This document shows, one piece after another, positions 7,693 through 64,000 of a stretch of 64,000 nt of DNA. The DNA comes from a virus (taxonomy: Duplodnaviria > Caudoviricetes): the IMG/VR virus record IMGVR_UViG_3300037010_001838. One strand, 5' to 3'. The notes under the pieces are model-generated. The model was not told where the DNA came from, searched no databases, and saw only the letters and a program-made list of their open reading frames with translations. The position numbers and the translations under genes were made by a program. Position 1 is the stretch's first letter. Every line of letters begins with the position of its first letter.

Positions 7693-7713
7693 ATATTTTT
7701 CCTGTTGTTATGA

Positions 7714-47572: not shown

Positions 47573-50500
47573 ATGAGTTATATTTCAGCATTATTTAATA
47601 AAAACGAAAATGAAGTTGTAGTATGGGAAAGAAACAACGGGGTTCGGGAAGTAAAGACTTACCCAGCTCCGTTGTATTTCTATACAGAAGCCGAGAATGG
47701 GAATTATACAAGTATTTTTGGTAAAAAATTAATGAGGCATGACTTTGACACATATGCACAATTTTCAGAAACAAAAAGAAAATTAACACGTACAACACTG
47801 TATGAATCTGATATAATGCCAGATATTAAGGTGTTATCTGAGCATTATTATAATGTTACACCCCCAACTCCAAATATAACTTTATTGGATATTGAGGTTG
47901 ATTACAATCCAAAAATTGGATTCTCTTCAGCGAAAAATCCATATGCACCAATAAACGCAATAGCACTACACCATATTCACACGAATCGTTCTATTGTCGT
48001 TGCGATACCACCACCAGGATGGGACCCAACTACGTTTGATACAGCTTTGGAAGAATTATCGGAAATTGTCATAGTTCCAAACGAAAGAGAATTAATTAAT
48101 ATATTACTAGAAGAGATTGAAGATTCTGATATTTTATCCGGTTGGAACAGTGATTTCTTCGATATACCATATATTGCAAAACGAATCGAAAAAACCTTAG
48201 GAAAAAGTGCATTACGTCGTTTATCGTTTGATGGTGCTAATTTACCGAGATACCGTGAAGTTGAAGTGTTCAAACAACAGGCAATAACTTGTGACTTATC
48301 TGGGCGTGTTCATTTAGATTATATGAATTTATTCAGAAAATATGAAGTTGCTGAACGCCCATCTTATAAATTAGAGTCAATTGCAGAAGAGATTCTCCCA
48401 CATTTGCCTAAATTAGAATATGAAGGTTCTTTAGCTGAATTGTATAAAAATGATTTCAATCATTTCATTCGATATAACATTCGAGATACAGAAATTCTGA
48501 AAGGATTTGAACAGAAATTAGGATATATTGCACTTGCAAATGTGATGTGTCACACATCAACGTCTCAATTTAAAGATGTGTTTGGAACATTAAAATTATC
48601 TGATTTCGCTGTGGTAAATTACTGTCATTACGAACTTGACGTTAAAGTTCCTGATTGGACTGAAAAACCGGACGGAAGGATTCAGGGAGCATATGTTCTA
48701 TTACCACAGATTGGAATGCATGAGTGGATTGGTTCTATTGATATAAATAGTCTGTATCCAAGTTCAATACGAAGCATTAATATCAGCCCGGAAACGTTGA
48801 TTGGGCAGTTCACAGGAAATATATCTGATTGGGAAGAGATCGTTGCAAACTCTGATAATACAATAACGCTGGAATACGACAACGGAGAATTACAAGAAGG
48901 AACTGCAAGTGAGTGGAGACAATATCTAAAACAGAAGAAGTGGGTTGTTAGTGGTTTTGGAACTGTGTTTGATCAAAATAAACCAGGGATTGTTCCAACT
49001 ATTCTTGCAAAGTGGTATAAGCAGAGAAAAGAATACCAAAAGTTAAAGAATGAATATTACGAAAAAGCTCAACTCGCTTCTGACGAAACAGAAAAAGAAG
49101 AGTTGATGGAACAATCAGCATACTATGATAGATTGCAGTATGTGTTTAAGATTAAGTTAAACAGTTTTTATGGAGCATTAACAAACTACTACTTTCGATT
49201 CTTTGATTTAAGAATGGGTGAATCAACGACCGGAACTGGAAGAGCCATTCTACGTCACCAGGTTCGTAAAACAGCCGAGATTCTTGATGACGAGGAATAC
49301 GACACAAACTTTCCATTATATAGTTCTGTGAAAAGTGCTGAAAAGGACGGAAACGATCCAACATATGCACTCGATGGATCCGAATTCAAAGGAATATTTC
49401 CTGCAGAATCAATCATCTACGGTGATTCTGTGTCTGGTGATTCCGTTATCAATACAACAATGAAAGAGATTGAAATACAAACACTTTTCACGAAGGTTGA
49501 TTATGTTCGTGGAAACAAAGAATATTGTATTACAGATTTACCACAGGTGTTAACGTATAATGAAGAATTAAACAAAACCGAATATTCACAAATCAATTAC
49601 GTGATGAGACACAGGTGTAATAAAAAAATGTATCGAGTGTGGATTACAAACAGTCAATACATTAATGTTACTGAAGACCATTCTCTCATGGGATACGTAA
49701 ATTCGAAATTTAGGAAAAAATACAACAATGCTCACATATCTAAAGTTAAACCGACGGATTTGGGAACAGAAATCAAGACTCTGATATACCAAAAAACTCT
49801 CCCTCAAACAATCATTGAATCAAAAGAACTTTCAACTGAGATGTACGTGTTAATGGGATATGTGTTGGGAGATGGGTATGTAGATACAACAGACACAGGT
49901 GGAGTTCTGTTATCGTTAGGTAAACAAGATTTAGACGAAGTTGTTTCTAAACTGATAGTCCCACTAAAACAACAAGGTTGGTTGTCTTCCTACACAGTTA
50001 AACCTAACGTCCACGATATTCAAATCAGTGGAACCCAACTGAAAAAGTTTTTACGAAGAGAGTTGTATTCAACTGAAAATAAACAAATCCCTGCTTGGAT
50101 GTTCAATGAAACTCCAAGCAACATATCGTCTTTTATGAAAGGATGGTTCTCAGCAGATGGGTTTGTTAATATGAACGGAACCGTCGGATTGTGTAATATC
50201 GATGAACAGTTAATCGTTGGTGCACAAAAGTTATTATTTCGTTGCGGGATTTCATCCACTTGGTTCTCCGAACAAACCGAAAATTCGTATAAAAGTACAT
50301 TCTTCGGAACATTCACAAAACGGCTTACAGTTAAGAATGCAAATGATTTTTTTAATGTGGTTGGGTTTGTTCAAAACAGAAAACAAGATAAAATGCATTT
50401 AGTTAAAAACGGAAAAAGAAAATCTGAAATTTCAAAGTATGATTTTGAATTAGTAAATGTTTATAAGATAGAAGAAATACAATATTGTGATTATGTGTAT

Positions 50501-51367
50501 GATATCGAAGTTGACAACACTCATACATTCTTTGCAAATAATATCTTAGTTCATAACACAGATTCCGTATACTTTAATACTCACGGAAGAGATCAAGAAG
50601 AAGCTACGTTGATTGCAGACGCTGTTGCAAACCAAGTTAACAAGTCATTCCAAGGATTTATGCAAGAAGCATTCTTATGCAATCCAGGATACGACGATAT
50701 CATCAAGTGTGGTCGCGAAGTCGTTTCCGATCGTGGTATATTCGTCGATAAGAAGCGTTATGTTCTTCATTTGGTTGACTTAGATGGTCATCACGTTGAT
50801 AAGATGAAAATTATGGGTCTTGAATTGAAAAAGACTACTTTACCGAAACCAATTGCAAAAAAACTGTCTTTGTATGTTGAACGGTTATTGAAAGGTGAAA
50901 GTTGGGATGTGTTGTCGAGAGATATCGTAGATTTCAAAACAGAACTCAACGAGTCTGTTGATGTGATGTCAATTGGACTTCCTAAAGGGATAAAGGGGAT
51001 CGAGGAATATACTGCAGCCTGGAAGTTGAATGAGAAGACAAGATTACCTGGACACGTCGCAGCAGGGATATTTTGGAATAATATGTTACAGGAATACGGA
51101 GATAAAGAGAGCCTGTCGATAACATCAAATATGAAGATCAAAGTCTTTTATTTAAAACGCATGTTTGGTAGATTTAAAGCAATCGCAATCCCTACCGATT
51201 TGACTATTATACCACAATGGTTTTTGGAAGAGTTTGAACCGATTATTGACAAAAAGGTTCAAATTGAAAAATTGGTTGATGAAACACTTCGTAAAATCTT
51301 TGTTGTTATCAATTTAGAAGTACCAAGTCCCCAAAGCGTATTCATCGAAGAAGAAGTGGAATTTTAA
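47573..51367 (+). CDS. gp43: Family B DNA polymerase (gp43-like) containing an intein
   Basis: Exo motifs LLDIEVD, GWNSDFFDIPY, YNIRD; pol motifs SIDINSLYPS, KIKLNSFYG, YGD/TDS, KKRY. Confidence 0.96.
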   Translation: MSYISALFNKNENEVVVWERNNGVREVKTYPAPLYFYTEAENGNYTSIFGKKLMRHDFDTYAQFSETKRKLTRTTLYESDIMPDIKVLSEHYYNVTPPTPNITLLDIEVDYNPKIGFSSAKNPYAPINAIALHHIHTNRSIVVAIPPPGWDPTTFDTALEELSEIVIVPNERELINILLEEIEDSDILSGWNSDFFDIPYIAKRIEKTLGKSALRRLSFDGANLPRYREVEVFKQQAITCDLSGRVHLDYMNLFRKYEVAERPSYKLESIAEEILPHLPKLEYEGSLAELYKNDFNHFIRYNIRDTEILKGFEQKLGYIALANVMCHTSTSQFKDVFGTLKLSDFAVVNYCHYELDVKVPDWTEKPDGRIQGAYVLLPQIGMHEWIGSIDINSLYPSSIRSINISPETLIGQFTGNISDWEEIVANSDNTITLEYDNGELQEGTASEWRQYLKQKKWVVSGFGTVFDQNKPGIVPTILAKWYKQRKEYQKLKNEYYEKAQLASDETEKEELMEQSAYYDRLQYVFKIKLNSFYGALTNYYFRFFDLRMGESTTGTGRAILRHQVRKTAEILDDEEYDTNFPLYSSVKSAEKDGNDPTYALDGSEFKGIFPAESIIYGDSVSGDSVINTTMKEIEIQTLFTKVDYVRGNKEYCITDLPQVLTYNEELNKTEYSQINYVMRHRCNKKMYRVWITNSQYINVTEDHSLMGYVNSKFRKKYNNAHISKVKPTDLGTEIKTLIYQKTLPQTIIESKELSTEMYVLMGYVLGDGYVDTTDTGGVLLSLGKQDLDEVVSKLIVPLKQQGWLSSYTVKPNVHDIQISGTQLKKFLRRELYSTENKQIPAWMFNETPSNISSFMKGWFSADGFVNMNGTVGLCNIDEQLIVGAQKLLFRCGISSTWFSEQTENSYKSTFFGTFTKRLTVKNANDFFNVVGFVQNRKQDKMHLVKNGKRKSEISKYDFELVNVYKIEEIQYCDYVYDIEVDNTHTFFANNILVHNTDSVYFNTHGRDQEEATLIADAVANQVNKSFQGFMQEAFLCNPGYDDIIKCGREVVSDRGIFVDKKRYVLHLVDLDGHHVDKMKIMGLELKKTTLPKPIAKKLSLYVERLLKGESWDVLSRDIVDFKTELNESVDVMSIGLPKGIKGIEEYTAAWKLNEKTRLPGHVAAGIFWNNMLQEYGDKESLSITSNMKIKVFYLKRMFGRFKAIAIPTDLTIIPQWFLEEFEPIIDKKVQIEKLVDETLRKIFVVINLEVPSPQSVFIEEEVEF
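49427..50557 (+). mobile_element. 377-aa intein with LAGLIDADG-type endonuclease
   Basis: Splits YGD|TDS; begins SVSGDS, has TEDHSL, LMGYVLGDG, FMKGWFSADG, ends VYDIEVDNTHTFFANNILVHN with +1 Thr. Confidence 0.93.
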
Positions 51368-51507: not shown

Positions 51508-51903
51508 TTGATTTACACATCTAACTACACTCGTTCTGGAAAATACTCTCTTTCGTATGCAATCAGCGTTAAACCACCTGATTGGTATGAAGGGAAGTGT
51601 TTACCACAACTCGCTCCAACATGGGAACTTGTAACAGGTATAAAACGTGGAATTATTACTGAAGAAGAATATTCCACCAGATATATCAATCTTTTGATAT
51701 CTCGTAAATATGATCCTCAAAAAATTGTTGATGCATTACCGGATAACACTCGACTGCTTTGTTATGAAAGTGCAGGAGAGTTTTGTCATAGGAGAGTGCT
51801 TGCTAAATGGATAGAAGATAGTATTGGAGTGATTATCCCAGAGTGGACAAGCGAAGAAGATATTAAAAAAGAAGAAATGTTAAACGATTTAGTGGAATTT
51901 TGA
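51508..51903 (+). CDS. DUF488-like protein
   Basis: YTSNY..ISVKPPDW..QLAPTW..LLCYE..EFCHR. Confidence 0.65.
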   Translation: MIYTSNYTRSGKYSLSYAISVKPPDWYEGKCLPQLAPTWELVTGIKRGIITEEEYSTRYINLLISRKYDPQKIVDALPDNTRLLCYESAGEFCHRRVLAKWIEDSIGVIIPEWTSEEDIKKEEMLNDLVEF

Positions 51904-52292: not shown

Positions 52293-52300
52293 TATAAATA
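52293..52300 (+). promoter_or_regulatory. T4-type late promoter TATAAATA heading the 52325-62631 operon
   Basis: Exact consensus 24 nt before the 52325 ATG; no terminator seen between it and the array. Confidence 0.7.
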
Positions 52301-52324
52301 CATCTTATATTATGAGGGTTTATC

Positions 52325-53905
52325 ATGAAAAAACAACAAACTAATACCAAAACACATTCATCAATAAAAGATAAATTTGACCAAATTCGTTTGGACCATG
52401 AACAGGATCAGTTTCTATCTACTACTGACAAAAAAGAATATAAAACAAAAGAAGAAAAAGAAAAAGAAAAACTGTCTGCAAATAAATTGAAGACAGCATC
52501 ACGTGAAGCCACAGCAGCCAAAACACGATCTTTGTCTTCACACGAGGCTACTAAAAAATTAAGCAAAGCAGATTTGTCACATCAAGATGAAATATCTGAT
52601 GAACAAGCTGCAAGAAATGCAGGGGGGAGAACTTCCTCACCTAAAACAAAACCATCAACAGATCTTGTTACACCACAAAATTTACCTAAATTAATGTCGA
52701 AAGCATTATCTACGAATGACAACAAAATCATCCCAGAGTGGCACATGGTTAAACACCTACCTGGTTATTTGGCATCGGGTATTCGCTCTATCGGTCGCGC
52801 AGTTTTTAAACCTTTCACTGATACAAAAATAGAAGACATCCAAGTGTTGGCAAGTCTTGGGGGTCAAGGACCAAATACAGATAAAGAAATTAACGCAGTC
52901 GCGAATTATGTACTACATCACGGGCGTCGTGATACAGAAGCAGAGTTAATTTTTCATGACAGAATTCCAGATTACTCAGCTGATATTAAAATTTTCAAAA
53001 CTCTTGGATATACTTTTATGTTAGTGAAAGATTTTGCAGGGAAATATGTATATTCGTGGCCAACAAGTGACGAAAAAGTGTTATCACATAAAAAAGAAAA
53101 TCCACGGTTGAAAGAAAATAAAATGAAAAAAATAACGCTTTTACAATTTTTGTTAAGTGAAGGTATTGAACAAAAAATGGAATTATTAACAAAACAGTTT
53201 GGAACGAAATTACTCGATGCAGCAGACAAGGATGGTTCTGCGAAATCTTTATTAAAAGATCACGAACCGGCACAAAATGTCAAACACATCATCACGACAC
53301 TAAGTCAAGCCGACCCATCAGGAGAGCGTGGAGCTTTTATAACATTTATTTTACGAATGTATTCATTGAGACAATTTCGTGTTGAGGACGTTGAACGCAT
53401 AAAGGATACGTTGTCGGAGTTTATCAAAAAGAAAAATTCGTTGCCTCCAGAACAAAAAGACATAAACAGATTTGCAAATTTGGACCAATTGTATGATGCA
53501 GTTGAAGGAACAGAAGAGCATAAAAGTAATCGTTCCGTTAAAAAAGAAACCAAACAGACTGGTGTTGAAGTGCTAATCAAAACAGATAAGTTCCTCGCTG
53601 TGAGGTTACTGACACACGAAGCAGCATGCTATTATGCATCAGGTACAAAATGGTGTACTGTAAATAAAAGCAACTTCGATCATTATTCTAAAAATGATCC
53701 ACTCTTCGTGATTATAATAGCAGAGAAGGACGCTCAGGGTCGACAACGTAAATTTCAATTTCATTACGAATCAGGACAGCTAATGAACGAACGAGACCAA
53801 GAAATCACCAAGACAGAAATAAAACTTCTTTCATCATATCCAGAATGGAGTAAGTTCCTAGAAAAAATAATTAAAGACAAATATATGAGCATGTCACAGA
53901 AGTGA
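52325..53905 (+). CDS. Two-part hypothetical protein, C-terminal GTKWCT-motif domain
   Basis: K-rich N-half; internal MKKITLLQFLLSE at 53123; C-terminal HEAACYYASGTKWCT..KFQFHYESGQLMNERD (PcfJ-like from memory, low confidence). Confidence 0.6.
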   Translation: MKKQQTNTKTHSSIKDKFDQIRLDHEQDQFLSTTDKKEYKTKEEKEKEKLSANKLKTASREATAAKTRSLSSHEATKKLSKADLSHQDEISDEQAARNAGGRTSSPKTKPSTDLVTPQNLPKLMSKALSTNDNKIIPEWHMVKHLPGYLASGIRSIGRAVFKPFTDTKIEDIQVLASLGGQGPNTDKEINAVANYVLHHGRRDTEAELIFHDRIPDYSADIKIFKTLGYTFMLVKDFAGKYVYSWPTSDEKVLSHKKENPRLKENKMKKITLLQFLLSEGIEQKMELLTKQFGTKLLDAADKDGSAKSLLKDHEPAQNVKHIITTLSQADPSGERGAFITFILRMYSLRQFRVEDVERIKDTLSEFIKKKNSLPPEQKDINRFANLDQLYDAVEGTEEHKSNRSVKKETKQTGVEVLIKTDKFLAVRLLTHEAACYYASGTKWCTVNKSNFDHYSKNDPLFVIIIAEKDAQGRQRKFQFHYESGQLMNERDQEITKTEIKLLSSYPEWSKFLEKIIKDKYMSMSQK

Positions 53906-53911
53906 ATCAAA

Positions 53912-54532
53912 ATGAAATTGCGCGACTTATTCGAAGCAATGGATTTATACAAATATCATTCAAACCCAGAAAAATTGCATGGGTTTGATAAAAAGCACAT
54001 GGCTACGCCTGAGATGGCTTTTGGAGCATTAAAAGGTGGAAAATTAAATGCACAACAGAAAAAAGAAGCAGAGTCTGTTGTTGCAACAGATCCACAGTGG
54101 GCTTATTGGTATGCTCATTATGTCATTAAGGGAAGATGGCCTAAAGCGGAACCTGTTATTGCAAAAGATCTACTGTGGGTTCATGCGTATGCTCGTGATG
54201 TCATCAAAGGAAGATGGCCTGAAGCAGAACCTGCTATTGCAAAAAAAGCATATTGGGCTTATGCGTATGCTCGTCATGTCATCAAAGGAAGGTTTCCTAA
54301 AGGAGAACCTGCTATTGCAAAAGATCCAGAGTATGCTTGTGGGTATGCTCGTTATGTCATTAAAGGAAGATGGCCTGAAGCAGAACCTGCTATTGCAAAA
54401 AAAGCATATTGGGCTTATGCGTATGCTCGTCATGTCATCAAAGGAAGGTTTCCTAAAGGAGAACCTGCTATTGCAAAAGATCCACAGTGGGCTAACAAAT
54501 ACAACGAATTTATTAAAGGACTTTCAAAATGA
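53912..54532 (+). CDS. 26-aa-repeat protein 1 (5 repeats)
   Basis: 61-aa N-cap + 5x26 + 15-aa C-cap = 206 aa. Confidence 0.93.
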   Translation: MKLRDLFEAMDLYKYHSNPEKLHGFDKKHMATPEMAFGALKGGKLNAQQKKEAESVVATDPQWAYWYAHYVIKGRWPKAEPVIAKDLLWVHAYARDVIKGRWPEAEPAIAKKAYWAYAYARHVIKGRFPKGEPAIAKDPEYACGYARYVIKGRWPEAEPAIAKKAYWAYAYARHVIKGRFPKGEPAIAKDPQWANKYNEFIKGLSK

Positions 54533-55227
54533 AATTACGCGACTTATTTGAAGCAATGGACTTATACAAATATCACTCGAATCCAGAGACGTTACCTGGA
54601 TATGATAAAAAGCACATAATTACTCTTGAGATGGCCTATGAGGCACTAAAGAGTGGAAAATTAAACGCACAACAGAAAAAAGAAGCAGAGTCTGTTATTG
54701 CAACAGATCCACGATGGGCTTATAGGTATGCTCGTTATGTCATCAAAGGAAGATGGCCTAAAGTAGAACCTGTTATTGCAGAAGATTCAGAGTGGGCTTA
54801 TAGTTATGCTCGTTATGTCATCAAAGGAAGATGGCCTAAAGCAGAACCTGTTATTGCAAAAGATCCAGAGTGGGCTTGTTGGTATGCTCATTATGTCATT
54901 AAAGGAAGATGGACTAAAGCAGAACCTGTTATTGCAAAAGATCCAGAATGGGCTTGGTTGTATGCTCGTCATGTCATTAAAGGAAGATGGCCTGAAGGAG
55001 AACCTGCTATTGTAAAAGATCTACAGTCGGCTTCATATTATGCTTATTATGTCATTAAAGAAAGATTTCCTGAAGCAGAACCTGCTATTGCAAAAGATCC
55101 AAAGTGGGCTTATGTGTATGCTCGTCATGTCATTAAAGGAAGATGGCCTGAAGGAGAACCTGCTATTGCAAAAAATCCAGAGTGGGCTAAAAAATACAAC
55201 GAATTCATCAAAGGACTTTCAAAATGA
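54529..55227 (+). CDS. 26-aa-repeat protein 2 (6 repeats)
   Basis: 232 aa; ATGA overlap; most divergent N-cap (PETLPGYDKKHIITLE). Confidence 0.93.
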   Translation: MKLRDLFEAMDLYKYHSNPETLPGYDKKHIITLEMAYEALKSGKLNAQQKKEAESVIATDPRWAYRYARYVIKGRWPKVEPVIAEDSEWAYSYARYVIKGRWPKAEPVIAKDPEWACWYAHYVIKGRWTKAEPVIAKDPEWAWLYARHVIKGRWPEGEPAIVKDLQSASYYAYYVIKERFPEAEPAIAKDPKWAYVYARHVIKGRWPEGEPAIAKNPEWAKKYNEFIKGLSK

Positions 55228-55844
55228 AACTACGTGATCTATTCGAAGCGATGGACTTATACAAATACCACTCGAATCCAGAGAAGTTACATGGATATGA
55301 TAAAAAGCACATGGCTACACCTGAGATGGCTTTTGAAGCATTAAAAGGTGGAAAATTAAATGCACAACAGAAAAAAGAAGCAGAGTCTGTTGTTGCAACA
55401 GATCCACAGTGGGCTTTTTTGTATGCTCGCGATGTCATTAAAGAAAGATTCCCTAAAGGAGAATCTGTCATTGCAAAAAAAGCAAATTGGGCTTATGTGT
55501 ATGCTCGTTCTGTCATCCAAGGAAGATGGCCTAAAGCGGAACCTGTTATTGCAAAAAATCCACAGTGGGCTTATGAGTATGCTCATGATGTTATCAAAGG
55601 AAGATGGCCTGAAGGAGAACCTGCTATTGCAAAAGATTCAACATATGCTTATTGGTATGCTTGTTATGTCATCGAAGAAAGATTTCCTAAAGGAGAATCT
55701 GTCATTGCAAAACATCCAAAATGGGCTTATGATTATGCTCATGATGTCATCAAAGGAAGATGGCCTGAAGGAGAACCTGTTATTGCAAAAGATCCAAAGT
55801 GGGCTAAACCATACAACGAATTCATCAAAGGACTTTCGAAATGA
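55224..55844 (+). CDS. 26-aa-repeat protein 3 (5 repeats)
   Basis: 206 aa; ATGA overlap. Confidence 0.93.
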   Translation: MKLRDLFEAMDLYKYHSNPEKLHGYDKKHMATPEMAFEALKGGKLNAQQKKEAESVVATDPQWAFLYARDVIKERFPKGESVIAKKANWAYVYARSVIQGRWPKAEPVIAKNPQWAYEYAHDVIKGRWPEGEPAIAKDSTYAYWYACYVIEERFPKGESVIAKHPKWAYDYAHDVIKGRWPEGEPVIAKDPKWAKPYNEFIKGLSK

Positions 55845-56305
55845 AACTACGTGATCTATTCGAAGCAATGGATTTATACAAATATCATTCAAACCCAGAG
55901 AAATTGCATGGATATGATAAAAAACACATGGCTACTCCTGAGATGGCATATGAGGCACTAAAAAGTGGAAAGTTGAATGCACAACAAAAGAAAGAAGCAG
56001 AATCTGTTGTTGCAAAAGATCCAGAGTTTGCTTGTTGGTATGCTCGTGATGTCATCAAAGGAAGATTTCCTAAAGGAGAACCTGCTATTGCAAAAGATCC
56101 TGAATGGGCTTATTGGTATGCTTGTAATGTCATCAAAGGAAGATTTCCTAAAGGAGAATCTGCTATTGCAAAAGATCCAGAATGGGCTTGTTGGTATGCT
56201 CGTTCTGTCATCAAAGGAAGATTTCCTGAAGCAGAACCTGCTATTGCAAAACATCCAAAATGGACCAAAAAATACAAAGAATTTATTAAAGGAATTTCAA
56301 AATGA
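55841..56305 (+). CDS. 26-aa-repeat protein 4 (3 repeats)
   Basis: 154 aa; ATGA overlap. Confidence 0.93.
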   Translation: MKLRDLFEAMDLYKYHSNPEKLHGYDKKHMATPEMAYEALKSGKLNAQQKKEAESVVAKDPEFACWYARDVIKGRFPKGEPAIAKDPEWAYWYACNVIKGRFPKGESAIAKDPEWACWYARSVIKGRFPEAEPAIAKHPKWTKKYKEFIKGISK

Positions 56306-56844
56306 AATTGCGTGATCTACTCGAAGCAATGGATTTATACAAATACCACTCGAATCCAGAGAAGTTACATGGATATGATAAAAAACACATGGCTACTCCT
56401 GAGATGGCCTATGAGGCACTAGAGAGTGGAAAACTGAATGCACAACAAAAGAAAGAAGCAGAATCTGTTGTTGCAACAGATCCAAAGTTTGCTTCATATT
56501 ATGCTCGTGATGTCATCAAAGGAAGATTTCCTGAAGGAGAACCTGTTGTTGCAACAGATCCAAAGTTTGCTTCATATTATGCTCGTGATGTCATCAAAGG
56601 AAGCTTTCCTGAAGCAGAGTCTGTTATTGCAAAAGATCCACAGTGGGCTTCATATTATGCTCGTGATGTCATCAAAGGAAGATTTCCTAAAGGAGAACCT
56701 GTTATTGCAAAAGATCCAGAGTATGCTTATTGGTATGCTCATTCTGTCATCAAAGGAAGATTTCCTGAAGCAGAACCTGTTATTGCAAAAGATCCACACC
56801 TGGCTAAAAATTACAACAAATTCATCAAAGGACTTTCAAAATGA
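56302..56844 (+). CDS. 26-aa-repeat protein 5 (4 repeats)
   Basis: 180 aa; ATGA overlap. Confidence 0.93.
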   Translation: MKLRDLLEAMDLYKYHSNPEKLHGYDKKHMATPEMAYEALESGKLNAQQKKEAESVVATDPKFASYYARDVIKGRFPEGEPVVATDPKFASYYARDVIKGSFPEAESVIAKDPQWASYYARDVIKGRFPKGEPVIAKDPEYAYWYAHSVIKGRFPEAEPVIAKDPHLAKNYNKFIKGLSK

Positions 56845-57539
56845 AATTACGTGACTTATTCGAAGCGATGAACTTATACAAATACCACTCAAACCCAGAG
56901 AAATTGCATGGATATGATAAAAAACACATGGCTACGCCTGAGATGGCATATGAGGCACTAAAGAGTGGAAAATTAAATGCACAACAGAAAAAAGAAGCAG
57001 AGTCTGTTGTTGCAACAGATACAAAGTGGGCTTATTGGTATGTCAGTAATGTCATCAAAGAAAGATTTCCTAAAGGAGAACCTGCTATTGCAAAAGATCC
57101 AGAATGGGCTTTTTTGTATGCTCGTGATGTCATCAAAGGAAGATTTCCTGAAGCAGAATCTGTTATTGCAAAAGATCCACGGATGGCTTATATGTACGCT
57201 CATGATGTCATCAAAGAAAGATTTCCTAAAGGAGAACCTGCTGTTGCAAAAAAAGCAGATTGGGCTTATGAGTATGCTCGTTATATCATTAAAGAAAGAT
57301 TTCCTAAAGGAGAATCTGTCATTGCAAAAGATCCAGATTATGCTTTTTGGTATGCTCGTGATGTCATCAAAGGAAGATGGCCTGAAGGAGAACCTGCTAT
57401 TGCAAAAAATCCACGGACGGCTTATATGTACGCTCATGATGTCATCAAAGAAAGATTTCCTGAAGGAGAACCTGTTATTGCAAAACATCCAGAATGGGCT
57501 AAACCATACAAAGAATTTATTAAAGGAATTTCGAAATGA
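56841..57539 (+). CDS. 26-aa-repeat protein 6 (6 repeats)
   Basis: 232 aa; ATGA overlap. Confidence 0.93.
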   Translation: MKLRDLFEAMNLYKYHSNPEKLHGYDKKHMATPEMAYEALKSGKLNAQQKKEAESVVATDTKWAYWYVSNVIKERFPKGEPAIAKDPEWAFLYARDVIKGRFPEAESVIAKDPRMAYMYAHDVIKERFPKGEPAVAKKADWAYEYARYIIKERFPKGESVIAKDPDYAFWYARDVIKGRWPEGEPAIAKNPRTAYMYAHDVIKERFPEGEPVIAKHPEWAKPYKEFIKGISK

Positions 57540-58234
57540 AATTACGTGACTTATTCGAAGCGATGGATTTATACAAATACCACTCAAATCCAGAGAAGTT
57601 ACATGGATATGATAAAAAGCACATGGCTACTCCACAGATGGCTTTTGAAGCATTAAAAGGTGAAAAATTAAATGCACAACAGAAAAAAGAAGCAGAATCT
57701 GTTGTTGCAACAGATACAAAGTGGGCTTATTGGTATGCTCGTGATGTCATTGAAGGAAGATTTCCTAAAGGAGAATCTGTCATTGCAAAAGATCCAGAGT
57801 ATGCTTATTGGTATACTCATTATGTCATCAAAGGAAGATGGCCTAAAGCAGAACCTGTTATTACAAAAGATCCAGAGTATGCTTATTGGTATGCTCATTC
57901 TGTCATCAAAGGAAGATTTCCTGAAGCAGAACCTGTTATTGCAAAAGATCCACAGTGGGCTTATGAGTATGTTCGTAATGTCATCAAAGGAAGATGGCCT
58001 GAAGCAGAACCTGCTATTGCAAAAGATCCAAAGTTGGCTTATTGGTATGCTCGTGATGTCATCAAGGAAAGATTTCCTAAAGGAGAACCTGCTGTTGCAA
58101 AAAATCCACGGACGGCTTATTGGTATGCTCATGATGTCATCAACGGAAGATGGCCTGAAGCAGAACCTGCTATTGCAAAAGATCCAAAATGGGCTAAAAA
58201 ATACAACGAATTCATCAAAGGACTTTCAAAATGA
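57536..58234 (+). CDS. 26-aa-repeat protein 7 (6 repeats)
   Basis: 232 aa; ATGA overlap. Confidence 0.93.
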   Translation: MKLRDLFEAMDLYKYHSNPEKLHGYDKKHMATPQMAFEALKGEKLNAQQKKEAESVVATDTKWAYWYARDVIEGRFPKGESVIAKDPEYAYWYTHYVIKGRWPKAEPVITKDPEYAYWYAHSVIKGRFPEAEPVIAKDPQWAYEYVRNVIKGRWPEAEPAIAKDPKLAYWYARDVIKERFPKGEPAVAKNPRTAYWYAHDVINGRWPEAEPAIAKDPKWAKKYNEFIKGLSK

Positions 58235-58929
58235 AACTACGTGATCTATTCGAAGCAATGGATTTATACAAATATCACTCGAATCCAGAGAAATTGCATG
58301 GGTTTGATAAAAAGCACATGGCTACGCCTGAGATGGCATATGAGGCACTAAAGAGTGGAAAACTGAATGCACAACAAAAGAAAGAAGCAGAATCTGTTAT
58401 TGTAACAGATCCAGAGTTTGCTTATTGGTATGCTCGTTCTGTCATCCAAGGAAGATGGCCTAAGGCAGAACCTGTTATTGCAACAGATACACAGTGGGCT
58501 TATGAGTATGCTCGTGATGTCATCAAAGGAAGATGGCCTGAAGCAGAACCTGCTATTGCAAAAGATCCTGAATGGGCTTATTGGTATGCTTGTAATGTCA
58601 TCAAAGAAAGATTTCCTAAAGGAGAACCTGCTATTGCAAAAGATCCACGGTCGGCTTATACGTACGCTCGTGATGTCATCAAAGGAAGATGGCCTGAAGC
58701 AGAACCTGCTATTGCAAAACATCCAAAATGGGCTTATGATTATGCTCGTTCTGTCATCAAAGGAAGATGGCCTGAAGCAGAACCTGCTATTGCAACAGAT
58801 ACAAAGTGGGCTTATTGGTATGCTCGTGATGTCATCAAAGGAAGATGGCCTAAAGCAGAACCTGCTATTGCAAAAGATACAAAATGGGCTAAAAGATATA
58901 ACGAATTCATCAAAGGACTTTCAAAATGA
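58231..58929 (+). CDS. 26-aa-repeat protein 8 (6 repeats)
   Basis: 232 aa; ATGA overlap. Confidence 0.93.
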   Translation: MKLRDLFEAMDLYKYHSNPEKLHGFDKKHMATPEMAYEALKSGKLNAQQKKEAESVIVTDPEFAYWYARSVIQGRWPKAEPVIATDTQWAYEYARDVIKGRWPEAEPAIAKDPEWAYWYACNVIKERFPKGEPAIAKDPRSAYTYARDVIKGRWPEAEPAIAKHPKWAYDYARSVIKGRWPEAEPAIATDTKWAYWYARDVIKGRWPKAEPAIAKDTKWAKRYNEFIKGLSK

Positions 58930-59546
58930 AACTACGCGACTTATTCGAAGCGATGGATTTATACAAATATCATTCAAACCCAGAAAAATTGCATGGGTTT
59001 GATAAAAAGCACATGGCTACGCCTGAGATGGCTTTTGGAGCATTAAAAGGTGGAAAATTAAATGCACAACAGAAAAAAGAAGCAGAGTCTGTTGTTGCAA
59101 CAGATCCACAGTGGGCTTATAGGTATGCTGATGATATCATCAAAGGAAGATGGCCTGAAGCAGAATCTGTTATTGCAAAAGATCCAGAATGGGCTTTTTT
59201 GTATGCTCGTGATTTCATTAAAGGAAGATTTCCTGAAGCAGAATCTGTTATTGCAAAAAATCCACGGACGGCTTATATGTACGCTCATGATGTCATTAAA
59301 GGAAGATTTCCTGAAGCAGAATCTGTTATTGTAAAAGATCCAGAATGGGCTTGGTTGTATGCTCGTGATGTCATCAAAGGAAGATTTCCTGAAGCAGAAT
59401 CTGTTATTGCAAAAGATCCGCGTTGGGCTTATTGGTATGCTAGTGATGTCATCAAAGGAAGATGGATTGAAGGAGAACCTGCTATTGCAAAAGACCCAAC
59501 ATATGCTAAACGGTACAAACAAGACATCAAAGGACTTTCGAAATGA
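58926..59546 (+). CDS. 26-aa-repeat protein 9 (5 repeats)
   Basis: 206 aa; ATGA overlap. Confidence 0.93.
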   Translation: MKLRDLFEAMDLYKYHSNPEKLHGFDKKHMATPEMAFGALKGGKLNAQQKKEAESVVATDPQWAYRYADDIIKGRWPEAESVIAKDPEWAFLYARDFIKGRFPEAESVIAKNPRTAYMYAHDVIKGRFPEAESVIVKDPEWAWLYARDVIKGRFPEAESVIAKDPRWAYWYASDVIKGRWIEGEPAIAKDPTYAKRYKQDIKGLSK

Positions 59547-60241
59547 AACTACGTGATCTATTCGAAGCGATGGATTTATACAAATACCACTCAAATCCAG
59601 AGAAGTTACATGGATATGATAAAAAGCACATGGCTACGCCTGAGATGGCCTATGATGCAGCAAAAAGTGGAAAGTTGAATGTGCAACAGAAGAAAGAAGC
59701 AGAATCTGTTATTGCAACAAATCCACGGTGGGCTTATAAGTATGCTCAACAAGTCATCGAAAGAAGATTTACTGAAGCAGAACCTGTTATTGCAAAAAAA
59801 GCAGATTGGGCTTATGTGTATGCACAACAAATCATCAAAGGAAGATGGCCTGAAGCAGAACCTGTTATTGCAAAAAAAGCAGATTGGGCTTATGAATATG
59901 CTCGTTCTATCATCCAAGGAAGATGGCCTAAAGCAGAACCTGTTATTGCAAAAAACCCACAGTGGGCTTATTGGTATGCTCGTAATGTCATCAAAGGAAG
60001 ATGGCCTGAAGCAGAACCTGTTATTGCAAAAGATCCAGGTTGGGCTTATGAGTATGCTCGTGAGGTCATCAAAGGAAGATGGCCTGAAGGAGAACCTGCT
60101 ATTGCAAAAGATCCACGGTGGGCTTATGAGTATGTTCTTCATTTCATCAAAGGAAGATTTCCTGAAGCAGAACCTGCTATTGCAAAAACCCCACACCTGG
60201 CTAAAAAATACAACGAATTCATCAAAGGACTTTCGAAATGA
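59543..60241 (+). CDS. 26-aa-repeat protein 10 (6 repeats)
   Basis: 232 aa; ATGA overlap. Confidence 0.93.
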   Translation: MKLRDLFEAMDLYKYHSNPEKLHGYDKKHMATPEMAYDAAKSGKLNVQQKKEAESVIATNPRWAYKYAQQVIERRFTEAEPVIAKKADWAYVYAQQIIKGRWPEAEPVIAKKADWAYEYARSIIQGRWPKAEPVIAKNPQWAYWYARNVIKGRWPEAEPVIAKDPGWAYEYAREVIKGRWPEGEPAIAKDPRWAYEYVLHFIKGRFPEAEPAIAKTPHLAKKYNEFIKGLSK

Positions 60242-60780
60242 AACTACGTGACTTACTCGAAGCAATGGATTTATATAAATATCATTCAAATCCAGAGAAG
60301 TTACATGGATATGATAAAAAGCACATGGCTACGCCTGAGATGGCTTTTGAAGCATTAAAAGGTGGAAAATTAAACGCACAACAGAAAAAAGAAGCAGAGT
60401 CTGTTGTTGCAACAGATCCAAGGTGGGCTTGTTTGTATGCTCGTAATGTCATCAAAGAAAGATTTCCTAAAGGAGAATCTGCTATTGCAAAAGATACACG
60501 TTGGGCTTGTTTGTATGCTCGTTATGTCATTAAAGGAAGATGGCCTGAAGGAGAACCTGCTATTGCAAAAAAAGCAGATTGGGCTTATGAGTATGCTCGT
60601 AATGTCATCAAAGGAAGATTTCCTGAAGCAGAATCTGTTATTGCAAAAGATCCAGAGTGGGCTTATGGGTATGCTCGTGATGTCATCAAAGAAAGATTTC
60701 CTGAAGGAGAACCTGTTATTGCAAAACATCCAGAGTGGGCTAAACCATACAACGAATTTATTAAAGGACTTTCAAAATGA
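60238..60780 (+). CDS. 26-aa-repeat protein 11 (4 repeats)
   Basis: 180 aa; ATGA overlap. Confidence 0.93.
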   Translation: MKLRDLLEAMDLYKYHSNPEKLHGYDKKHMATPEMAFEALKGGKLNAQQKKEAESVVATDPRWACLYARNVIKERFPKGESAIAKDTRWACLYARYVIKGRWPEGEPAIAKKADWAYEYARNVIKGRFPEAESVIAKDPEWAYGYARDVIKERFPEGEPVIAKHPEWAKPYNEFIKGLSK

Positions 60781-61475
60781 AACTACGTGATCTATTCGAA
60801 GCAATGGATTTATACAAATACCACTCAAATCCAGAGAAGTTACATGGATATGATAAAAAGCACATGGCTACGCCTGAGATGGCTTTTTTTGCATTAAAAG
60901 GTGGAAAATTAAATGCACAACAGAAAAAAGAAGCAGAATCTGTTGTTGCAACAGATCCACAGTGGGCTTATAGTTATGCTCGTAATGTCATCAAAGGAAG
61001 ATGGTCTGAAGCAGAACCTGCTATTGCAAAAGACCCAGAATGGGCTTTTTTGTATGCTCGTGATATCATCAAGGGAAGATGGCCTGAAGCAGAACCTGTT
61101 ATTGCAAAAGACCCAGAATGGGCTTTTTTGTATGCTCGTGATGTCATCAAGGGAAGATGGCCTGAAGGAGAACCTGCTATTGCAAAAAACCCACAGTGGG
61201 CTTATTGGTATGCTAGTAATGTCATCAAAGAAAGATTTCCTAAAGGAGAACCTGCTATTGCAAAAGATTCAGAATGGGCTTTTTTGTATGCTCGTGATGC
61301 CGTCAAAGGAAGATGGCCTGAAGCAGAACCTGCTATTGCAAAAGATCCACGTTGGGCTTATAATTATGCTCGTTCTGTCATCAAAGGAAGATGGCCTGAA
61401 GAAGAACCTGCTATTGCAAAAGATCCAACATATGCTAAACGGTATAAACAAGACATCAAAGGACTTTCGAAATGA
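60777..61475 (+). CDS. 26-aa-repeat protein 12 (6 repeats)
   Basis: 232 aa; ATGA overlap. Confidence 0.93.
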   Translation: MKLRDLFEAMDLYKYHSNPEKLHGYDKKHMATPEMAFFALKGGKLNAQQKKEAESVVATDPQWAYSYARNVIKGRWSEAEPAIAKDPEWAFLYARDIIKGRWPEAEPVIAKDPEWAFLYARDVIKGRWPEGEPAIAKNPQWAYWYASNVIKERFPKGEPAIAKDSEWAFLYARDAVKGRWPEAEPAIAKDPRWAYNYARSVIKGRWPEEEPAIAKDPTYAKRYKQDIKGLSK

Positions 61476-62092
61476 AACTACGCGACTTATTCGAAGCAAT
61501 GGATTTATACAAATATCACTCGAATCCAGAAAAATTGCATGGGTTTGATAAAAAACACATGGCTACTCCTGAGATGGCCTATGAGGCACTAGAGAGTGGA
61601 AAACTGAATGCACAACAAAAGAAAGAAGCAGAATCTGTTGTTGCAACAGACACAAAGTGGGCTTATGAGTATGCTCATGATGTCATCAAAGGAAGATGGC
61701 CTAAAGGAGAATCTGTCATTGCAAAAGATCCACGTTTGGCTTATATTTATGCTCGTGATGTCATCAAGGAAAGATTTCCTGAAGCAGAACCTGCTGTTGC
61801 AAAAGATCCACGTTTGGCTTATTGGTATGCTCGTGAGGTCATCAAAGGAAGGTTTCCTAAAGGAGAACCTGTTATTGCAAAAGATCCAGAGTTGGCTTAT
61901 GGGTATGCTCGTGATGTCATCAAAGAAAGATTTCCTAAAGGAGAATCTGTCATTGCAAAAGATCCAAAGTGGGCTTATGGGTATGCTCGTGATGTCATCA
62001 AAGAAAGATGGCCTGAAGGAGAACCTGCTATTGCAAAAGATCCAAAGTGGTCTAAAAATTACAACGAATTCATCAAAGGACTTTCGAAATGA
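61472..62092 (+). CDS. 26-aa-repeat protein 13 (5 repeats)
   Basis: 206 aa; ATGA overlap. Confidence 0.93.
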   Translation: MKLRDLFEAMDLYKYHSNPEKLHGFDKKHMATPEMAYEALESGKLNAQQKKEAESVVATDTKWAYEYAHDVIKGRWPKGESVIAKDPRLAYIYARDVIKERFPEAEPAVAKDPRLAYWYAREVIKGRFPKGEPVIAKDPELAYGYARDVIKERFPKGESVIAKDPKWAYGYARDVIKERWPEGEPAIAKDPKWSKNYNEFIKGLSK

Positions 62093-62631
62093 AATTACGC
62101 GACTTGTTTGAAGCAATGGATTTATACAAATATCACTCGAGTCCAGAAAAATTGCATGGGTTTGATAAAAAGCACATGGCTACGCCTGAGATGGCTTTTG
62201 AAGCATTAAAAGGTGGAAAATTAAACGCACAACAAAAGAAAGAAGCAGAGTCTGTTGTTGCAACAGATCCACAGTGGGCTTTTTTGTATGCTCGTGATGT
62301 CATCAAGGGAAGGTGGCCTGAAGGAGAACCTGCTATTGCAAAAGACCCAGAATGGGCTTTTTTGTATGCTCGTGATGTCATTGAAGGACGATGGTCTGAT
62401 GCAGAACCTGCTATTGCAAAAGATCCACGGTGGGCTTATTGGTATGCTCGTGATGTCATCAAAGGAAGATTTCCTGAAGCAGAATCTGTTATTGCAAAAG
62501 ATCCACGGTGGGCTTGTTGGTATGCTCGTTATGTCATCAAGGGAAGATGGCCTGAAGGAGAACCTGTTATTGCAAAAGATCCAGAATGGGCTAAAACATA
62601 CAACGAATTTATTAAAAGACTTTCGAAATGA
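62089..62631 (+). CDS. 26-aa-repeat protein 14 (4 repeats)
   Basis: 180 aa; ATGA overlap; ends KRLSK instead of KG(L/I)SK. Confidence 0.93.
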   Translation: MKLRDLFEAMDLYKYHSSPEKLHGFDKKHMATPEMAFEALKGGKLNAQQKKEAESVVATDPQWAFLYARDVIKGRWPEGEPAIAKDPEWAFLYARDVIEGRWSDAEPAIAKDPRWAYWYARDVIKGRFPEAESVIAKDPRWACWYARYVIKGRWPEGEPVIAKDPEWAKTYNEFIKRLSK

Positions 62632-62637
62632 AACTGC

Positions 62638-62780
62638 ACACTGGAAAATGTTTCTGGTGTAGCAACAATAAGAAAGTAGTCAATTGAACATTAAAATGTT
62701 GTTTTTCTTTATCTTCTCGGTGTATAATTATTTGAATGAGATAAAATTTATCTGCTAATATATAACAAACATGTTATATA
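62638..62780 (-). ncRNA. Candidate TnpB omega/reRNA scaffold and element right end
   Basis: Non-coding, directly 3' of the TnpB-like ORF, several hairpins (62759-62780 TATATAAC/GTTATATA; 62739-62753 AGATAAA/TTTATCT; 62638-62660 imperfect palindrome). Positional inference only. Confidence 0.35.
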
Positions 62781-64000
62781 TCATATAACAAAACACATGT
62801 CTTGTTGCAAATAAATTTCTGAAAACCATCCATTGCTGGAATTGGAACTCGATATCTCATTTTCGAGTCTTTGATGAACGTGAACAATTCTTTCCATGTT
62901 TTGTAATGTGGCCACTCTACTTCTTCCTTCCATAGGTTCTTTAGAGTGCAAACATTAATCAACATCGGATAGAATTCTTTACGTTTATATCCACGTCTTG
63001 CAATTTCACAAGCAGCAGAAATTGGGTCAGGTAATTGATAAATCAAATTACCAATAAAACTACTATAGTGAGGAAATACTTTTTTAACTGTGAAGAAACG
63101 TTTGCATCGTTTTTCGATCAGTTGGGCTGTTAATTTACGATTCCATACGTTGTTGACCAGTCGGTTAAAGTTCTTTCCTTTATTGTGGTTCTGGTTTTTG
63201 AATGATAGATCTTCTATTGTTAACAAATTCACATTATATCCAACACAGATGTGTTGTATTTGTTTTGATATCTGTGATATTTCGTGTTTGCTTTTGTTTA
63301 CAAGATAAGAACTGTTATCAGAATCGTTAATTGTAAGATCAGACAATTTCCACAATCTGGAAAACAGTCGGTTATCTTCATCAAAAATTGATAGAGCAAT
63401 ATAATTAGGATTTAGGTCAATCCCTGCATGTCTGGTGGCAATTGGAGTATAATTAATATTTGTTTCTAATTTTGTATCATCAAATGAAAAGAAAATATCT
63501 GTGTTTGTTAATTTAACTTGATAAGAAACCTGAGAATTTTCAGCACTTTGTTGAAGTTTGGTTAACAATTTTTTGTAATTGTTTTTTAACTTTGGTAAAG
63601 TCAACAAAATCTTTTGGTTTCGAGAAAGTTTAAAGATAACTAATGAATTTTCGATATCAAGTTCAAATTTTCTATTTCCGTGTTTGCTCGTCTCACCTAC
63701 AATTGACAATGGCAACAGTCGCAATTGTTGAATCTGTTCTTTTGACAGTTTTTGCAATGCCCTCTGTTTAAAATTGTTCTTGCCACCAAATATTCTGTTT
63801 GATTTTTCGGTTGATATATCAGAACTAGCCATTGCTAGCCCTTCATTCACTGCGCTATTTAATAGCCAACTGTCAGTTTCAGGCCATTTGTTGACCACAT
63901 CTCTGTACATATCATTACGATAAATACCTTCCATTCCACGATTGTAACAATATCGTACGACAGACGACAGTTGTTTTTGTAACTGTTCAATCGTTTGGAT
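62774..64000 (-). mobile_element. tnpB: TnpB-like RuvC nuclease of the IS200/IS605/IS607 superfamily (5' end beyond window)
   Basis: RuvC-I HAGIDLNP, RuvC-II LTIEDLSF, RuvC-III YSSFIGN..LPDPISAACEIARRG; the frame stays open from 63934 to the window edge (IQTIEQLQKQLSSVVRYCYNRG) with the typical R.xYN N-terminal motif. Confidence 0.8.

Follow-up and report, generated by a model that had tools for sequence, protein, structure and literature searches.

A tandem array of variable helical-repeat proteins in a T4-like jumbo phage as a candidate set of packaged binders

We describe an array of 14 tandem paralogous genes in a 64,000-nucleotide stretch of viral DNA (IMG/VR record IMGVR_UViG_3300037010_001838), which is referred to below, at its full length, as the window. 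Each gene encodes a capped protein built of 26-residue repeats, in which a nearly invariant framework carries a small number of highly variable positions. The reading that we favour, with a confidence that approaches an even chance without reaching it, is that the array forms part of a late operon and provides a set of diversified binders with a constant handle, and that these proteins would have their leader trimmed by the prohead protease and be packaged and injected. Capped helical-repeat proteins with hypervariable surface positions are already known in kind, as are fast-evolving sets of phage genes; what appears to be undescribed is the 26-residue repeat itself, its scale, its library-like codon pattern, its link to PcfJ-like domains, and its polyprotein forms. 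Beyond what a preliminary description of this DNA had reported, we present a candidate late promoter, the linked PcfJ-like gene, the turnover between arrays of 14 and 27 genes, polyprotein relatives, and a leader that is possibly cleaved by a protease.

Architecture of the array and fold of the repeat

The array comprises 14 open reading frames (ORFs) of 154-232 amino acids (aa) on the + strand, which span positions 53912-62631 and run for 8.7 kb without a frameshift or premature stop. Each protein consists of a 61-aa N-terminal cap (N-cap), n repeats of 26 aa, and a 15-aa C-terminal cap (C-cap) that is itself a half-repeat; in gene order n is 5, 6, 5, 3, 4, 6, 6, 6, 5, 6, 4, 6, 5, and 4, i.e., 71 units in total. 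The proteins with six repeats (232 aa) are encoded by gene 2 (54529..55227), gene 6 (56841..57539), gene 7 (57536..58234), gene 8 (58231..58929), gene 10 (59543..60241), and gene 12 (60777..61475); those with five (206 aa) by gene 1 (53912..54532), gene 3 (55224..55844), gene 9 (58926..59546), and gene 13 (61472..62092); those with four (180 aa) by gene 5 (56302..56844), gene 11 (60238..60780), and gene 14 (62089..62631); and the shortest, with three repeats (154 aa), by gene 4 (55841..56305). The ORF list and a residue-level parsing of the proteins thus agree with the preliminary description, which had reported 14 intact paralogues, 71 repeats, and this layout of caps and repeats. Stop and start codons overlap as ATGA at every junction between array genes, and a Shine-Dalgarno motif, AAGGA, lies within the codons of the C-cap (K-G-L-S-K); we therefore regard the genes as translationally coupled. 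The products have masses of 18-27 kDa and all 14 are basic, with isoelectric points (pI) of 8.5-9.6. They share a constant N-terminal handle made up of a 9-aa leader, MKLRDLFEA, a conserved motif that is disordered in the model, (M/I)DLYKYHSNPEKLHGY, and two cap helices.

The regularity of the repeat pattern in the 14 genes is far above what is expected by chance. Among the 71 units, position 5 takes 15 different residues and position 9 takes seven (D, Y, N, S, H, Q, and E). Y6 and E19 do not vary at all, A3, I11, and R14 are each present in 70 units, and positions 7, 10, 12, 16, 22, 23, and 24 each have their main residue in at least 63. These per-position counts confirm the fixed and variable positions tabulated in the preliminary description except at position 13, where the constancy of glycine had been overstated (G in 55 units, E in 15, and R in 1).

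We modelled the 232-aa product of array gene 2 with AlphaFold2 on an alignment of the paralogues, and obtained a predicted local distance difference test score (pLDDT) of 88 overall and about 98 across the repeats. Residues 1-28 of the model are a disordered leader and linear motif, residues 33-57 form the two cap helices, the repeats occupy residues 62-217, and the C-cap residues 218-232. Each unit starts with the 12-residue helix A, which extends from P26 of the preceding unit through I11, and continues with a K-G-R-W/F (GRWP) loop, the 7-residue helix B (P16-I22), and an A-K-D turn. The array proteins are accordingly predicted to fold as a regular helix-loop-helix alpha-solenoid, the kind of helix-pair structure that had been anticipated from the sequence. 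A helical wheel drawn on the helix limits assigned by DSSP places A3, Y6, A7, V10, and I11 on one side of helix A and the variable positions 1, 5, 8, and 9 on the opposite side, with positions 2 and 4 flanking them, which supports the earlier proposal that the variable positions 1, 5, 8, and 9 cluster on a single helix face.

The preliminary description had also been unable to place the family among known repeats, and database searches had the same outcome. Against Pfam (E up to 1) the array proteins gave no significant match, either to helical-repeat profiles that include HEAT, HEAT_PBS, TPR, Sel1, PPR, and PUF or to the ankyrin, TAL effector, LRV, and DUF4116 profiles. Pfam matches to HTH_35 (21.9-24.4 bits, cut-off 25), FF, CW_7, DUF982, and Phage_FRD3 were sub-threshold, with no stretch passing on its own, and were set aside as single repeats grazing unrelated profiles; nine relatives of the array proteins likewise gave only such sub-threshold matches. 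The name 'winged helix DNA-binding', attached automatically to some atlas clusters, is the same single-repeat profile artefact. Searches with the array proteins of NCBIfam and PADLOC, and a sequence search of the PDB, returned nothing, and a weak match in PHROGs to a 'virion structural protein' family, again without a passing stretch, was not used. A Foldseek comparison of the model with the PDB gave no fold relative (best E 0.012, with template-modelling scores (TM) of 0.14-0.19), and a wide VIA-align search of solved chains reached a Z of no more than 6.6, a level lower than the 8-13 that helical repeats give by chance. In the AlphaFold DB the nearest named folds are DUF4116 (TM 0.60 by query) and then LRV and HEAT (0.24-0.30). 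No cultured phage genome gave a megablast or tblastn match to an array protein, the nearest record (G001) holds no copy of an array gene, and a literature search on phage PcfJ-like proteins and on jumbo-phage arrays of this kind returned no relevant paper.

Codon-level diversity and turnover between strains

The caps and the repeats have evolved in different ways. Across the 14 paralogues, the N-cap shows proportions of non-synonymous and synonymous differences (pN and pS) of 0.040 and 0.40, i.e., a pN/pS of 0.10, and is old and under purifying selection; the same holds for the leader, where synonymous variation is found at L3, R4, D5, L6, F7, and A9. For the 71 repeat units pN is 0.18, pS is 0.117, and pN/pS is 1.55. 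The diversity (pi) at four-fold degenerate sites of the repeats is 0-0.1 and mostly exactly 0, and the framework codons are fixed or nearly so (GCT for A3, GGA for G13, CCT for P16 and P20, and GCA for A23). Codons 1, 2, 4, 5, 8, and 9, in contrast, vary freely in their first and second bases, almost only non-synonymously. At position 5 all codons are of the form xxG/T, almost every amino acid has a single codon, and the third base of TGG is retained: glycine is encoded by GGG, alanine by GCG, valine by GTG, and arginine by AGG, whereas the framework uses GGA, GCT/GCA, GTC/GTT, and AGA/CGT. The variants at this position are therefore best explained as recent point derivatives of TGG rather than old lineages. 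The pattern as a whole indicates that the DNA of the repeat scaffold is kept uniform by concerted evolution and that diversity at the six codons is actively maintained or renewed.

The same difference between caps and repeats is seen between strains. In eight orthologous pairs of equal length from the window and a related IMG/VR contig (G002, 84.9 kb), pN/pS is 0.09 in the N-cap and 0.70 in the repeats (Sd 23.5, Nd 60.5), and the ratio of non-synonymous to synonymous changes differs between the two parts with a Fisher p of 1e-7. The relative excess of non-synonymous change in the repeats that the preliminary description had predicted is thus present both among paralogues and among orthologues, and positive selection on the variable repeat codons is strongly suggested. 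The 245 units of three arrays contain 95 residue combinations at positions 4/5/8/9 and 155 at all six positions, the commonest combination at 4/5/8/9 (FLRD) accounts for 7% of the units, and 216 of the 245 units are distinct. Mutagenesis by a diversity-generating retroelement can be ruled out as the source of this variation because T, G, A, and C all serve as consensus bases at the variable sites, which hence show no adenine specificity; the A-rich framework codons K12 AAA, K24 AAA, and E19 GAA are nearly invariant, and no reverse transcriptase was found among the window ORFs scanned, which were a part of the total.

Comparison of strains shows how far the arrays themselves differ. The tail of the gene upstream of the array is 99.7% identical in the window and G002, but the G002 array has 27 genes over 18.3 kb as opposed to 14 and includes proteins of 7, 8, and 11 repeats. 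The first two genes and the last gene of the G002 array are collinear with those of the window at 93-99% identity, and long collinear blocks at 93-95% identity are present at both array ends. Two of the 27 G002 genes are broken, one truncated at 171 aa and one ending out of register (7235-7931 and 16800-17495; loci L004/L075); single copies therefore decay while the array as a whole persists. Two further contigs from two samples, L001 and L002, agree with each other over their common genes and represent a third arrangement of the array. These comparisons show that co-occurring strains have gained, lost, and shuffled both entire genes and repeats. In the public runs (four, all of them DNA metagenomes from microbial-mat or sediment samples), short-read Logan unitigs fragment to 70-200 bp inside the array, and consequently the long-range order of the 14 genes derives from the original assembly alone. 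The longest exact repeat within the array is 168 bp, and the paralogues differ about every 7 nt.

Two further features of the array DNA were noted. Codons 53-61 of the array genes (E-S-V-V-A-T-D) form a 7-8-bp hairpin, TCTGTTG TTG CAACAGA (for example at 54066-54092, 56461-56483, and 60936-60958), placed where the synonymous variation of the N-cap ends. A possibly compensatory double change (G>A with C>T), which preserves the pairing and alters two amino acids, is present in four of 50 copies, and the stem is broken in about 15 of the 50; the hairpin may be an RNA or DNA signal, or may be due to chance. Long ORFs in the other frames and on the minus strand of the array were rejected as by-products of a stop-free repeat, the pN/pS of the alternative frames being 0.63-1.36 and in no case low.

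Putative late operon, PcfJ-like gene, and relatives in other phages

The gene content shows that the window comes from a T4-like jumbo myovirus. Its products include a T4-type portal (Pfam Portal_T4, E 2e-90) with 50% identity to that of Xanthomonas phage XacN1 and 37% to that of the PA5oct group, a large terminase, a tail sheath, and a family-B DNA polymerase. A prohead protease of the Peptidase_S77 family (Pfam, E 1.8e-22) is encoded at 29146-29781 on the - strand, and the Pfam domain of the gp23-type capsid protein begins at residue 53 and is preceded by a propeptide ending V-L-T-E/T-A-A-A (the slash marks the candidate cleavage point), a T4-like L-x-E site. The phage origin of the array, proposed earlier, is borne out by these portal, terminase, sheath, protease, and capsid genes. 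Peptidase_S77 is also present in three of four other jumbo-phage records that contain the repeat family.

A T4-type late-promoter motif, TATAAATA, is located at 52293..52300 (+), 25 nt ahead of the start codon (ATG) of the gene just before the array. The motif occurs 15 times in the window compared to 5.3 expected (about threefold), and about 10 of the copies lie 22-82 nt upstream of gene starts on the correct strand, mostly of structural genes (sheath, scaffold, and others). No terminator-like sites were found on the + strand inside the array. These motifs suggest that 52293-62631 is a single late operon consisting of the PcfJ-like gene and 14 coupled paralogues. A second copy of the motif within array gene 11 (60274-60281, +) arises from L-Y-K-Y codons with Tyr13 as TAT and is probably coincidental.

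The first gene of this putative operon (52325..53905, +) encodes 526 aa and ends 6 nt before the array. Residues 267-526 (53123-53902) form a PcfJ-like module that has 33% identity (E 7e-25) to the N-terminal domain of P0024, a natural fusion of such a module with four 26-aa repeats. The module and the N-terminal domains of many fused relatives have a common G-T-x-W-C-T core, of which W-C alone is invariant. The 526-aa protein has no match in Pfam, and its homologue P0013 scores 21.2 bits against PcfJ (PF14284), for which the cut-off is 25; 66 of 100 atlas neighbours of the module belong to clusters that carry PcfJ, and its fold matches in the AlphaFold DB are named PcfJ-like with probabilities of 0.9-0.99. 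The model of the gene product has a pLDDT of 89. In the AlphaFold DB the module is also fused to other repeat types (DUF4116 and LRR). The PcfJ-like homologue EST35_0205 of Pseudomonas phage PA5oct carries the annotation of a virion protein detected by tandem mass spectrometry (ESI-MS/MS), and gp205 is not discussed in the PA5oct paper. When the module and an array protein were predicted as a complex, the score was 0.34 compared to 0.02 for the best control, a weakly supportive result for which no interface is reported; in the benchmark of this score, 58 of 80 solved complexes reached that mark, as did 2 of 110 mismatched pairs, and scores of at most 0.60 were found for only 7 of the 80. The prediction runs agree in at least 41% of contacts, with a partner pLDDT of at least 83. 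As for the remainder of the 526-aa protein, residues 1-266 (52325-53122) match no family and begin with a segment rich in Lys, Glu, Ser, and Thr. The module starts at an internal Met267 that is aligned with the N-termini of stand-alone homologues, and just before it is R-L-K-E, an L-x-E site at which this protein too might be cut by the head protease.

The repeat family extends well beyond the window. An exhaustive HMMER search found 4,895 clusters (50% identity) at E<=1e-3 and 2,792 at E<=1e-10, the nearest ESM-Atlas clusters are almost all from Uroviricota, and the family is, by this measure, almost entirely phage-borne. The same architecture of caps and repeats is found in the independent metagenome contigs L001, L002, and L004/G002 and in thousands of database proteins. 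In 70 IMG/VR loci, from which the anatomy of the family was drawn, repeat genes often occur in tandem clusters of 3-6, single proteins have up to 20 repeats, and the PcfJ-like module is fused N-terminally to the repeats or encoded adjacently in 25 of the 70. No single protein has both the N-cap and the PcfJ fusion. The first 17 residues of the N-cap (MNLYK[YF]H.NPE.L.GY) also head ORFs without repeats and therefore constitute a portable N-terminal module, which is disordered in the model.

The relatives also include two giant ORFs on a 323-kb jumbo-phage contig (JGI contig Ga0620611_000075), namely P0131 (2,253 aa, 12 modules; locus L076, 10001-16762) and P0133 (1,464 aa, 8 modules; locus L077, 10001-14395). 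Both are chains of complete modules, each with N-cap, repeats, and C-cap, joined by linkers that end in x-x-E-A, such as GLKKKKKTTEA/IDLKNLV or LDQKVDEA/MDLKNLV. HMMER aligns the T-T-E-A of the polyproteins with the L-F-E-A (LFEA/MDLY) of the window leader, and MKLRDLFEA is therefore the counterpart of an inter-module linker ending in a conserved Glu-Ala. Many of these linkers contain runs of 5-8 lysines, probably encoded by poly-A tracts, which could cause ribosomal or transcriptional slippage.

The family-B DNA polymerase gene (47573-51367, +) is split by an intein with a LAGLIDADG homing-endonuclease domain (Pfam Intein_splicing and LAGLIDADG_3), and a small gene of the DUF488 family (DUF488-N3a, E 5e-8; 51508-51903, +) lies between it and the late operon. 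Directly after the array is a TnpB-like gene (62774-64000, -) with a TIGR01766 domain at 23 bits, which is below the cut-off, and a RuvC-like G-I-D-L-N-P-N motif. Near this gene, contigs from other runs diverge from the window at 62732/62737/62805 and the alignment with G002 ends at 62745; the gene has the appearance of a mobile insertion that some strains lack.

A proposed set of packaged binders and alternative explanations

In the account that we favour, the stacked faces of helix A would form a binding surface, and a cocktail of 14 different binders (27 in the other strain) would be made at once. The constant N-terminal handle would give all of them a common fate, which would most likely be loading into the prohead, removal of the leader by the T4-type prohead protease at L-F-E/A, and injection together with the DNA in the manner of the T4 internal proteins; the injected binders may then act at once on variable host factors, for example defence proteins. 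The handle might also, or instead, dock onto the PcfJ-like protein. A polyprotein of binders would need to be cut, and the T4-type prohead protease could do so. In T4, gp21 cleaves after L/I-x-E, at glutamyl-alanyl bonds, and the capsid-targeting leader consists of the first 10 aa, MKTYQEFIAE, which takes the internal proteins into the prohead and is afterwards removed (PMC9026906, PMC3012670). The T-even internal proteins are diverse anti-defence proteins that have only the leader in common (PMC3012670). Aligned with the T4 sequence MKTYQEFIAE/A, the window leader MKLRDLFE/A has M1, K2, F7, and A9 in common, carries R instead of Y at residue 4 (targeting by the T4 leader depends on residues 4 and 7), and would place the site at L6-F7-E8. 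We favour packaging because the protease, the capsid L-T-E site, the late-promoter motif, the basic proteins, and the L-F-E/A leader are all present; the virion annotation of the PA5oct PcfJ-like homologue is indirect evidence in its favour.

A number of observations weigh against this account. The operon adjoins the DNA polymerase gene and lies outside the head module. The likeness of the leader to that of T4 is limited to the four residues given above, L-x-E is a very short motif, the polyprotein linkers carry T or V at P3 and not L or I, and most N-cap-type relatives in other phages begin at MNLYK[YF]H without a leader, which is therefore dispensable for the family. The virion data concern the PcfJ-like domain of the distant phage PA5oct, not the repeats; the surface exposure of the variable residues is a deduction from helix limits; and the predicted complex with the PcfJ-like module is weak and is not counted alone as evidence of binding. 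The pN/pS of the repeats in the orthologous pairs, 0.70, is below 1, and many of the differences resemble exchanged segments (linked haplotypes of W/F15, E/K17, A/G18, P/S20, and A/V21), so the suggested positive selection is confounded by recombination. Binding, targets, packaging, and cleavage are all steps that we infer.

The most serious alternative, which we consider unlikely but worth keeping in view, is that the array proteins stay unpackaged and act late as interchangeable recognition subunits of the upstream PcfJ-like protein, the handle docking onto it and the variable solenoid bringing substrates or partners; the array would then be the split form of the PcfJ-like-plus-repeat fusions of other phages. 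Fusions of this kind occur naturally (P0024, P0013, P0007, and at many loci), no protein combines the N-cap with the PcfJ fusion, and N-cap genes stand beside stand-alone PcfJ-like genes in the window and in L001, L002, L004, L015, L016, L017, and L071. The fusion of the module to DUF4116 and LRR repeats as well, and, weakly, the predicted complex (0.34 compared to 0.02 for the best control), may be read in the same direction. However, the PcfJ-like domain has no known activity and only its W-C pair is invariant, no PcfJ-like gene is found within the 10-20 kb covered at the N-cap loci L008-L013, L044, and L057, and the polyprotein linkers and the Glu-Ala junction are left unexplained. Since such a role is compatible with packaging, it is no strict alternative to the packaged set. 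A nucleic-acid-binding role of the PUF, PPR, or TALE kind, in which each repeat would read one base via positions 5 and 9 (and 8), is improbable in our judgement, even though the repeats are modular with two or three hypervariable positions at a fixed spacing, all array proteins are basic, R, H, N, D, S, Y, and W are frequent among the variable residues, and PUF and PPR chains occur among the weak structural matches (Z about 5-6). Those matches are at chance level for helical repeats, no PUF, PPR, or TALE profile is matched, and proteins of 3-6 repeats would have very short target sites. Moreover, the 95 combinations at positions 4/5/8/9 in 245 units, with their long tail, are far above what a four-letter code needs, and the repeat-level 'specificity code' proposed in the preliminary description is unlikely for this reason, the number being too large for an alphabet of the PUF, PPR, or TALE type.

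We assign a similarly low probability to the idea that the array encodes bulk structural or DNA-condensing head proteins, or scaffold-like fillers, that have no specific targets and vary through weak surface constraint and unequal recombination. Small basic proteins that are expressed late and, through coupling, in equal amounts would suit such a role, T4 IPII and IPIII are abundant basic internal proteins (PMC9026906), and the two broken G002 copies show that single copies are dispensable. Relaxed constraint, however, predicts drift at synonymous and at other surface sites, and instead six codons change while four-fold sites stay fixed; homogenisation would moreover wipe out neutral variety, and 216 of 245 units are distinct. 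An assembly artefact, i.e., a chimera of strain variants or a mis-ordered repeat region with a wrong gene number and wrong composition of single genes, is very improbable. The break-up of the unitigs into 70-200-bp pieces inside the array, the co-occurrence of three or more variants of the array within the same sample or sister samples, and the fact that in-register mis-joins would leave the frames open all allow for it, but paired reads can resolve an array whose longest exact repeat is 168 bp and whose paralogues differ about every 7 nt. The agreement of L001 and L002 from two samples, the blocks at 93-95% identity that are collinear with G002 at both ends, and the recurrence of the family, tandem clusters included, across dozens of unrelated contigs also argue against an artefact, and an error in the gene order would leave the overall finding intact.

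The array can be compared with several known systems. It resembles the IPI, IPII, and IPIII proteins of T-even phages in the T4-type prohead protease of the phage, the small basic proteins, the short conserved leader ending in L-x-E before Ala, and mature parts that are extremely variable among related phages; IPI* is known to be injected and to inhibit a host restriction enzyme (PMC3012670, PMC9026906). The array proteins nevertheless have no sequence or fold relation to IPI/II/III, their variable part is a modular repeat scaffold, and in place of one to three unrelated genes there are 14-27 tandem coupled copies, whose packaging and cleavage we infer. With engineered and natural alpha-solenoid binders (DARPins, alphaRep/HEAT-like, and designed helical repeat proteins) they share capped short helix-pair repeats, an invariant framework, and a few randomised positions on one helix, and designed helical repeats are among the best, if weak, structural matches of the model; they differ in being natural and in having their own 26-aa unit (a 12-residue helix, the GRWP loop, and a 7-residue helix), and from all solved chains by a TM of about 0.15 (Foldseek) and a Z of at most 6.6 (VIA-align). 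DUF4116 and LRV are the closest predicted folds in the AlphaFold DB, and DUF4116 is likewise found fused to the PcfJ-like module, but there is no profile match and the unit length and consensus are different. The likeness to PcfJ-like proteins (PF14284) and EST35_0205 concerns the upstream gene, not the repeat proteins, and the window protein is below the Pfam cut-off. PUF, PPR, and TALE proteins also consist of modular helical repeats with two or three specificity positions per unit, but they are not homologous to the array proteins, whose residue combinations are far more numerous than a base code allows. Finally, the ankyrin families of poxviruses and giant viruses and the variable lymphocyte receptors are, like the array, large sets of paralogues in which one end, the effector or anchor, is constant and the recognition surface has diversified, and which evolve by duplication, loss, and gene conversion; they differ in fold, host domain, and genetic mechanism, the copies described here being co-translated from one phage operon or polyprotein.

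A wider proposition, which we advance tentatively and which is more probably wrong than right, is that jumbo phages carry a capsid-delivered combinatorial library of binders, a viral counterpart of an immune-receptor repertoire, encoded either in coupled genes or in polyproteins that the head protease would cleave. Its surfaces would be renewed by point changes on a scaffold homogenised by recombination and by the shuffling of cassettes between strains, and it would be injected with the DNA as a cocktail of inhibitors against variable host defences. If the reading of the array as a packaged binder set is true, the family would offer a natural, evolution-tested binder scaffold that is small and regular, in which each 26-aa unit has six positions open to randomisation and each phage population supplies hundreds of natural variants, i.e., a DARPin-like design invented by phages. 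The T4 internal-protein idea of injected, fast-evolving anti-defence proteins would then extend from single genes to a repertoire, and two blocks of phage dark matter, namely the about 4,900 repeat clusters and the PcfJ-like domain, would gain a first functional handle. The turnover between 14 and 27 genes beside a 99.7% identical flank would, on the same condition, mark this locus as a front of the arms race between phages and their hosts in microbial mats and sediments.

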